IMG/VR virus record: IMGVR_UViG_3300049144_000095
Span: 128,001-192,000 of that record
Reading direction: 5' to 3' (one strand)
Source: a virus
Taxonomy: Duplodnaviria; Caudoviricetes
DNA length: 64,000 nucleotides
Below are positions 46,745-46,864 of the stretch, piece after piece (positions within the stretch are counted from its first letter, which is position 1; the number at the start of each line of letters is the position of its first letter). The translations under genes and the position numbers were made by a program. The notes under the pieces are model-generated. The model did not search any database, was not told the origin of the DNA, and was given only the letters and a program-made list of their open reading frames with translations.

Positions 46745-46864
46745 TGGGAGGAGCGGGATTCGAACCCGCGCGGATTCGCTGACACACGTCATTGTCCATG
46801 GCTGACGTGCAGACGAATCACCCCGGATTACGTCCGGGCCGATAGGCCGCTCTGGCACCCTCCC
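46745..46864 (-). tRNA. tRNA-Tyr(GTA)-like with about 52-nt variable arm
   Basis: Acceptor GGGAGGG/TCCTCCC+A; anticodon stem CCCGG/CCGGG, loop ACGTAAT; T arm GCGGG-TTCGAAT-CCCGC. Confidence 0.75.

Follow-up and report, generated by a model that had tools for sequence, protein, structure and literature searches.

Textbook tRNA variable regions hold 4 to about 24 nucleotides, and U33 is near-universal in tRNAs. The tRNA regions of phages T4 and T5 also encode stable non-tRNA RNAs (species 1/2), small and structured molecules of unknown function that are co-transcribed and processed with the phage tRNAs; to our knowledge, none of these is said to form a complete cloverleaf bearing a giant variable arm. 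The published identity rules state that tyrosine identity requires A73 and U35, that cysteine identity requires U73 and GCA, that leucylation requires A73, and that serine identity is taken from the variable arm, the anticodon being ignored (PMC9976931). The allo-tRNAs and selC* tRNAs, some of which lie in phage tRNA clusters, have been proposed to act as missense or nonsense suppressors or as regulatory RNAs (PMC5389517). [quoted passage not shown] The helices recognized by Ro60 are of stem-bulge-stem type and contain a CGAA motif (PMC12135203; PMC4201824). In the literature searched, no tRNA or tRNA mimic was described with an arm like the one analyzed here.

The gene belongs to a soil Streptomyces-type jumbo phage (record of 251,159 bp), whose nearest named relatives are Streptomyces phages of ~186 kb, e.g. 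Satis, with ~84% match over short genes. It was analyzed within a window of 64,000 nucleotides, bases 128001-192000 of this IMG/VR virus record and the whole stretch of DNA examined, where it reads from the minus strand as a class II cloverleaf of 120 nt; nucleotides counted from 46864 towards 46745 carry their standard tRNA numbers as far as position 44. The cloverleaf of this length announced by a preliminary description of the locus was confirmed from the sequence, and its helices are kept in nine homologues. The tRNA core (U8, A14, G18G19, T54-T55-C56 and A58) is complete, together with a 7-bp acceptor stem and a 5-bp T stem; the core bases T8, A14 and G15 are accompanied by the GG (18/19) of the D loop. 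The D arm, with a 4-bp stem and a 9-nt loop, is the most conserved block of the family, and the single A.C mismatch of its stem in the window copy is A-U in 5/9 homologues. Nucleotide 26 is absent between the D and anticodon stems. The 7-nt anticodon loop is numbered A32 C33 G34 T35 A36 A37 T38, and no CCA is encoded, since A73 (46745) is followed by CGA. Feature coordinates are given in Table 1.

The variable region spans exactly the 52 nt (46821-46770) that had been assigned to it, and its length in the homologues is 50-53 nt. It is indeed abnormally long, about three times the normal arm; ordinary tRNA-Tyr molecules have 13 to about 20 nt there. Its order is a lower stem GATTCG/CGAATC, a bulged T, a CTG/CAG step, a 3-nt bulge, the apical stem and an 11-nt loop. 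Both stems pointed out in the preliminary description (GATTCG/CGAATC and CACGTCA/TGACGTG) are present; its wording of a fully paired arm was slightly overstated, because they are separated by a CTG/CAG step and by two bulges, of 1 and 3 nt. A search of the 251-kb genome found the arm sequence in single copy, and thus it is not a repeated or mobile hairpin.

Table 1. Features of the giant-arm gene in the window, its upstream neighbour, and homologous copies (positions of homologues refer to their own loci).
Feature	Position	Strand	Anticodon	Discriminator	Basis or remark
Whole tRNA-shaped gene (window copy)	46745..46864	-	GUA	A	G1 at 46864, A73 at 46745; covariance model R1, 142.5 bits
Acceptor stem, 5' strand GGGAGGG	46858..46864	-			Pairs with 46746-46752; double changes in 4/7 pairs
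D arm, stem CCAG/TCGG, loop AGCGGCCTA, class II type	46839..46855	-			3/17 columns variable (alignment A7)
Anticodon arm, stem C27-G43 to G31-C39	46822..46838	-			Sequence; 27-43 pair covaries
Anticodon loop A-C-G-T-A-A-T	46827-46833	-	GTA		Anticodon at 46829-46831, C33 at 46832
Variable region, 52 nt (positions 44-95)	46770..46821	-			Sequence, covariation, RNAalifold
31-nt apical add-on module (CTG, 7-bp stem, 11-nt loop, 7-bp stem, TGT)	46782..46812	-			
Apical loop GCCATGGACAA, 11 nt	46792..46802	-			Self-complementary hexamer CCATGG at 46796-46801
T arm GCGGG TTCGAAT CCCGC	46753..46769	-			Double changes in 4/5 pairs
Acceptor stem, 3' strand TCCTCCC	46746..46752	-			Sequence and covariation
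Small basic ORF	46872..47066	-			Ends 7 nt before the RNA; in-frame TAG
L007 homologue	2739-2856		GCA	A	
L024 homologue	3203-3320		GCA	C	
L054 homologue	3248-3365		GCA	C	Has U33
L052 homologue	1587-1704		GCA	C	
L053 homologue	3350-3467		GCA	C	
L080 homologue	3348-3465		GCA	G	
L082 homologue	3359-3476		GUA	A	
L058 homologue	3859-3979		CCA	A	Most divergent copy

Standard finders pass over this gene. ARAGORN made no tRNA call at the full-length sequence, the Rfam tRNA model RF00005 gave no match at gathering score or at E up to 10, and ARAGORN -m found no tmRNA there. Once 31 apical bases were deleted in silico, ARAGORN called tRNA-Tyr(gta), which is the outcome of the arm-trimming check put forward in the preliminary description. 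Two other assignments were considered and rejected. The tRNA-Thr(agt) with a 41-nt 'intron' offered by the ARAGORN intron mode would break the covarying anticodon stem and the arm, and an anticodon at positions 35-37 (UAA/CAA, Leu) is forbidden by the stem register, including the covariation of the 27-43 pair. A pseudoknot joining the D strand to the arm was looked for as well, and no strand complementary to the arm was found for it.

Homologues could be reached only from the neighbouring proteins to related contigs and from these to the covariance model R1, which detected eight further distinct versions in related soil phage contigs, making nine distinct copies with that of the window. In alignment A7 the window copy stands apart from the other copies by 30-43 differences, as the outlier of the family, and the L082 copy is nearest to those of L052 and L053 (11 differences). 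A distant blastn search of the INPHARED phage records with 201 nt gave no match, pattern scans of IMG/VR returned only the L007 contig or chance matches, a pattern scan of JGI metagenomes gave five chance matches and no homologue, and a scan of species genomes for the arm module gave seven chance matches, all without stems. The same sequence, free of variants and joints, is present in contigs of four further soil DNA runs. The RNA is absent from L028, L055-L057 and Satis. L028, a close relative (253-kb contig of a Streptomyces sp. assembly), keeps the small basic ORF and lacks the RNA, which is therefore dispensable there. At L028:3196-3225 the junction ccgGGC-CCGT-gcttgcgcc looks like a fusion of the RNA's first bases to its last ones, such as a clean deletion of the gene would leave.

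To judge whether the structure is under selection, pairing was followed across the nine copies. The single sequence folds with z = -2.7, 97.2% of the cells are paired across the copies, and slid-partner controls reach only 28-54%. Compensatory double changes occur at 14 of 33 pairs, a number attained in none of 500 shuffles, and the helices are kept in copies that differ at up to 43 positions. The apical stem is the strongest case of covariation, with 6/7 pairs doubly changed and pairing retained through changes in 13/15 columns. Below it, columns 50-55/84-90 of the arm are almost invariant, forming a stem-bulge-stem stretch CG-Y-CU(G)...GUC-AG-CG, and the add-on had a length of exactly 31 nt in each of the three copies from which it was excised (window, L007 and L024). 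Without a supplied structure, RNAalifold recovered the acceptor, anticodon, apical and T helices; in its output the 27-43 pair takes the forms C-G, A-U and G.U. A further pair was suggested between G55 and the nucleotide immediately 3' to the apical stem (G-C in seven copies, G.U and A-U). The apical stem would then reach 8 bp, with a 3-nt GUC bulge beneath it, then two pairs, a bulge of 1 nt and finally the lower stem. In the L058 copy the anticodon stem is weakened and a few mismatches occur, the arm being still paired. Loss of arm pairing in homologues, the observation that the preliminary description had held to count against it, is clearly not what the copies present: the arm covaries. 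Pairing and covariation in nine copies imply a selected RNA and not decay or chance. On this comparative evidence the giant-arm gene is a real, selected, working RNA, and it is probably not an ordinary tyrosine tRNA. The protein-docking arm proposed earlier stays a reasonable reading; the arm consists of a sequence-invariant stem-bulge-stem core under a freely covarying stem.

The apical loop reads G-CCAUGG-ACAA in the window, G-CGUACG-GCAA in seven copies and G-UGUACG-GGCAA in L058. The hexamer is self-complementary in all forms (with G.U in UGUACG), in spite of four substitutions between CCAUGG and CGUACG, the support for the palindrome amounting to two independent changes only. Such a loop invites the idea of a kissing-loop dimer; RNAalifold offers as an alternative two extra base pairs inside the loop.

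The anticodon behaves differently from the helices. Only positions 33, 34 and 35 vary in the anticodon loop, and the anticodon is its least conserved part. In the eight close copies no change was seen at A32, A36, A37 and U38 or in the anticodon stem. Anticodons are GCA in six copies, GUA in two and CCA in one; the discriminator is A in four, C in four, G in one and never U. Accordingly U35 is missing in 7/9 copies and A73 in 5/9, and under the published identity rules (PMC9976931) only the two GUA/A73 copies, those of the window and L082, fit a synthetase cleanly, with A73, G1-C72, G34 and U35 all present. The earlier focus on tyrosine and TyrRS fits the window copy and does not extend to the family, given its anticodons and its three discriminator bases; nor does the phage encode a TyrRS. 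The two GUA copies are in non-sister lineages, since the window copy is the outlier and L082 groups nearest to L052/L053. Nor does the family read as tRNA-Cys: the window copy has GUA, the six GCA copies carry A, C or G at 73, and the acceptor-T layout is 7/5. Among the other tRNAs of these clusters, Asn, Pro, Phe and Gln have the same anticodon in every locus where they are present, and tRNA-Lys has CTT in most loci and TTT in two.

The lack of U33 noted in the preliminary description is borne out, position 33 being C in 8/9 copies, that of the window included, with U only in L054. At L052:1225-1313, in the same cluster as a GCA giant-arm copy, lies an ordinary 89-nt class II tRNA-Tyr(GUA) that also has C33 (loop CCGUAAA). 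By eye, its common features with the giant-arm RNA are only the class II layout, C33 and a UGAUC arm start. Given this ordinary tRNA-Tyr, C33 is not peculiar to the giant-arm RNA and is no argument against decoding; it agrees with the proposal that altered anticodon loops let phage tRNAs evade the tRNA nucleases of the host (PMC10264068; PMC11555353).

The window contains a minus-strand tRNA cluster (Pro, an odd 87-nt 'Gly', Lys, Phe and Asn), and the giant-arm RNA lies downstream of it, beyond three small ORFs. In L052 and L053 it follows tRNA-Asn by 2 nt, and in four lineages it comes 6-10 nt after the small basic ORF. For the four neighbouring small ORFs, this one included, PHROGs yielded no family, and no promoter or terminator was called beside the giant-arm gene. 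The ORF (47066-46872) has a TAG at 46932-46934 (minus) where three relatives have CAG (Gln), and the downstream frame is conserved (...RHREKTGKMVKKMQRRGVV). Since no other convincing internal TAG was found genome-wide in ~34,000 codons aligned with the 260-kb relative, it looks like an isolated truncation or read-through and not like recoding. Immediately 3' to the RNA, at 46715-46741 (minus), the window reads GGTGCCAG-CACGGACGTATACC. Two blocks of 8 nt from the 5' half of the RNA (GGTGCCAG ... CGGACGTA) thereby recur with their order unchanged. The flank, missing in L007, may be the scar of a partial tandem copy.

Several other tRNA-shaped sequences were encountered in these phages. In the window, ARAGORN called an 85-nt 'tRNA-Glu(ctc)' at 56820-56904 (+), with its anticodon at position 41, and the 87-nt 'tRNA-Gly(ccc)' at 48618-48704 (-), with its anticodon at position 27 and a CCCGGG palindrome in an enlarged loop; both have an abnormal layout. 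At L080:2597-2726 there is an oversized 130-nt tRNA-shaped match with acceptor CCTCCTG/CAGGAGG, D loop AGCGGCCTAA and a large insert replacing the anticodon region. The unannotated gap between tRNA-Arg and tRNA-Asp of Satis (L018:50-280; MH576962.1, ~125549-125779) starts like a tRNA, with GCCCCTG TA GCTC AGGTTGGGACA GAGC and a loop CTGAAAA, and closes ~230 nt on with a T arm followed by CAGGGGC-A, the acceptor strand that matches. Its sequence suggests a tRNA-like gene interrupted by an insert of ~150 nt. Outside the window, at G000:C1:222608-222718 and 223763-223987, the phage encodes a protein of the TROVE/Ro60 kind (537-aa frame), directly preceded by a YrlA-like RNA. The latter scores 39 bits against RF02553, below the gathering score, and adjoins an ARAGORN 'tRNA-Ile' at 221985-222060.

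The reading that we favour, with a probability of about 0.45, is that of a tRNA-derived look-alike, matured like a tRNA, whose arm module would be selected for protein docking or dimerisation. The gene would derive from a class II (Tyr-type) phage tRNA and would be transcribed as the last unit of the tRNA cluster. Since the elements read by the maturation machinery are kept, the transcript would most likely undergo RNase P cleavage, 3' trimming and CCA addition like its neighbours. What the alignment shows to be held constant by selection is the tRNA body and a 31-nt add-on atop an ordinary-sized variable arm, and not the anticodon, which is the reason for reading the RNA as a look-alike. The add-on is made up of the near-invariant stem-bulge-stem core, the freely covarying 7-8-bp stem and the 11-nt loop with its self-complementary hexamer. 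The body would provide a stable, processable scaffold and the arm would be the working part, either a protein docking site or a kissing-loop contact with a second copy; the RNA would not be a routine decoder. Favouring the look-alike are the drift of anticodon and discriminator while the cluster tRNAs keep their anticodons, and the fact that the GCA copies never have the U73 needed by CysRS and that the GCA and CCA copies lack the U35 needed by TyrRS. The conserved helices, the paired arm of L058 beside its weakened anticodon stem, and the loop hexamer that stays self-complementary speak for it too; the encoding of Ro60 and a YrlA-like tRNA mimic by the same phage is also counted in its favour. 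Against it stand the combination of GUA and A73 in the non-sister window and L082 copies, which looks like a maintained tyrosine identity, the invariance of the anticodon arm in the eight close copies, unexpected if this arm had no role, the canonical U33 of L054, and the absence of the RNA from L028.

The main and serious rival, possible though less probable, is a working elongator tRNA, specific for tyrosine here and re-targeted to Cys/Trp codons in the relatives, in which the arm and C33 would be armour or a handle. Such a tRNA would escape host tRNA-cutting defences and would be charged by TyrRS or by an anticodon-blind enzyme, e.g. SerRS reading the arm. The gene, once trimmed, is scored as a normal tRNA, no other tRNA-Tyr was found in the phage or its 260-kb relative, and GUA with A73 appears in two non-sister lineages. 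The ~16-bp arm has no precedent on the ribosome that we know of, nucleotide 26 is absent, the gene is missing in the close relative L028, and anticodon-blind charging would produce missense at Tyr, Cys or Trp codons. The complete bacterial Tyr set of the window copy (G1-C72, A73, G34, U35, A36 and a long arm; PMC9976931) makes its tyrosylation possible, the C33 shared with the ordinary L052 tRNA-Tyr agrees with nuclease evasion (PMC10264068; PMC11555353), and G1-C72, G2-C71 and G30-C40 show little or no variation, a feature shared with bacterial tRNA-Ser, for which identity is anticodon-independent (PMC9976931). The elongator reading has to face the lack of U35 in seven copies, a discriminator that drifts among A, C and G without a single GCA copy having U73, and the fact that the one class II tRNA-Cys known, selC*, has U73 and 8/4 stems (PMC5389517).

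An improbable extension of this alternative is a fully working tRNA with a ~16-bp arm, longer by far than any other known to us, that would be charged through arm and acceptor (e.g. by SerRS or TyrRS) regardless of anticodon. In that case the anticodon would have toggled among Tyr, Cys and Trp codons from phage to phage and the RNA would be a built-in missense recoding adaptor; in a bold variant, two copies may join through the self-complementary loop into a dimeric tRNA.

It is quite unlikely that the 31-nt module is an intervening sequence, cut at the conserved bulges and followed by rejoining of the ends into an ordinary ~89-nt class II tRNA. The module is exactly 31 nt in the three measured copies, has near-invariant borders (CG-Y-CUG ... 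YGU-CAG-CG) with bulges on opposite strands, and its removal leaves a tRNA accepted by ARAGORN. Nevertheless, the bulge-helix-bulge is 1-3-3 or 1-2-3, the 1- and 3-nt bulges being separated by 2-3 bp, and not the archaeal 3-4-3; 31 nt is far below the length of self-splicing introns; and a spliced spacer would need neither a covarying 7-bp stem nor a conserved loop. We know of no protein-dependent tRNA splicing in bacteria or phages, and the phage genome contains no RtcB and no match to a T4 Rnl1-type RNA ligase, the Rnl1 search having been run without a positive control.

Scarcely probable is an adaptor RNA for the phage Ro60, Y-RNA-like with a non-permuted tRNA topology, in which the stem-bulge-stem arm would be the Ro60 site. 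A TROVE/Ro60 protein with an adjoining YrlA-like RNA is present in the phage, the arm is of stem-bulge-stem type, and the lower stem of the window copy includes CGAA; this motif is missing in the other eight copies, the Rfam YrlA model (RF02553) reaches 12.1 bits on the T arm and finds nothing beyond it, the topology is not permuted, and the gene lies 48 kb from rsr. Ro60 also occurs in Satis and G002, relatives without the giant-arm RNA, which makes the co-occurrence uninformative.

A functionless, decaying tRNA pseudogene with a hairpin insertion, to which the failure of standard finders, the drift of anticodon and discriminator, the loss in L028 and the few mismatches of L058 might point, is close to refuted by covariation, with 14 compensatory pairs and 97% pairing among copies differing at up to 43 positions, a fixed insert length, an invariant D arm, core motif and loop flanks, and the identical sequence in contigs of four other soil runs.

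Whatever its role, selection has kept a 50-nt, ~16-bp arm in a clade of soil jumbo phages, on a tRNA body that is canonical in other respects, and since this gene is missed by standard tRNA finders, such genes are undercounted in phage tRNA censuses. If the RNA decodes, it would widen the known tolerance of aminoacyl-tRNA synthetases, EF-Tu and the ribosome, and would offer a natural scaffold for engineered tRNAs with extra modules. If it does not, it would represent a new architecture among the tRNA look-alikes of phage tRNA operons.

The nearest kinds of RNA are class II tRNA-Tyr, YrlA and the allo-/selC* tRNAs, each of which fails at least one defining feature. With class II tRNA-Tyr(GUA) the window copy has in common the 7/5 acceptor-T layout, a Ser/Tyr-type D loop, G1-C72, A73, G34-U35-A36 and a variable arm starting with UGAU. 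It departs from this class in its 52-nt variable region, as opposed to 13 to about 20, in lacking nucleotide 26 and in being missed at full length by ARAGORN and Rfam, and its family has the Tyr anticodon in only 2/9 copies and A73 in 4/9. The allo-tRNAs and selC* tRNA-Cys resemble it in combining a long variable arm with unexpected anticodons, including GCA, and differ in their 8/4 or 9/3 acceptor/T stems, their Sec-like D arm and, in selC*, U73 (PMC5389517), whereas the giant-arm RNA has 7/5 stems, an ordinary D arm, never U73 and a far longer arm. Nuclease-evading phage tRNAs (PMC10264068, PMC11555353) are likewise genes of phage tRNA clusters with a non-canonical anticodon loop, here C33; they are otherwise normal and decoding, and none has an enlarged arm or a drifting anticodon. 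The YrlA/Y RNAs (RF02553; PMC4201824) likewise occur in phages; they are non-decoding, as the giant-arm RNA may be, and they retain the D/T elbow of tRNA and are acted on by tRNA enzymes. YrlA, however, is circularly permuted, with a sealed acceptor and ends in a Ro60-binding stem, whereas in the giant-arm RNA the ends are those of a normal tRNA and the anticodon arm is closed, and the GNCGAA motif (GNCGAA(N)G) is not conserved in it. A non-decoding giant-arm RNA would thus be set apart from the Y RNAs by its non-permuted body and by a clearly delimited, testable add-on module.
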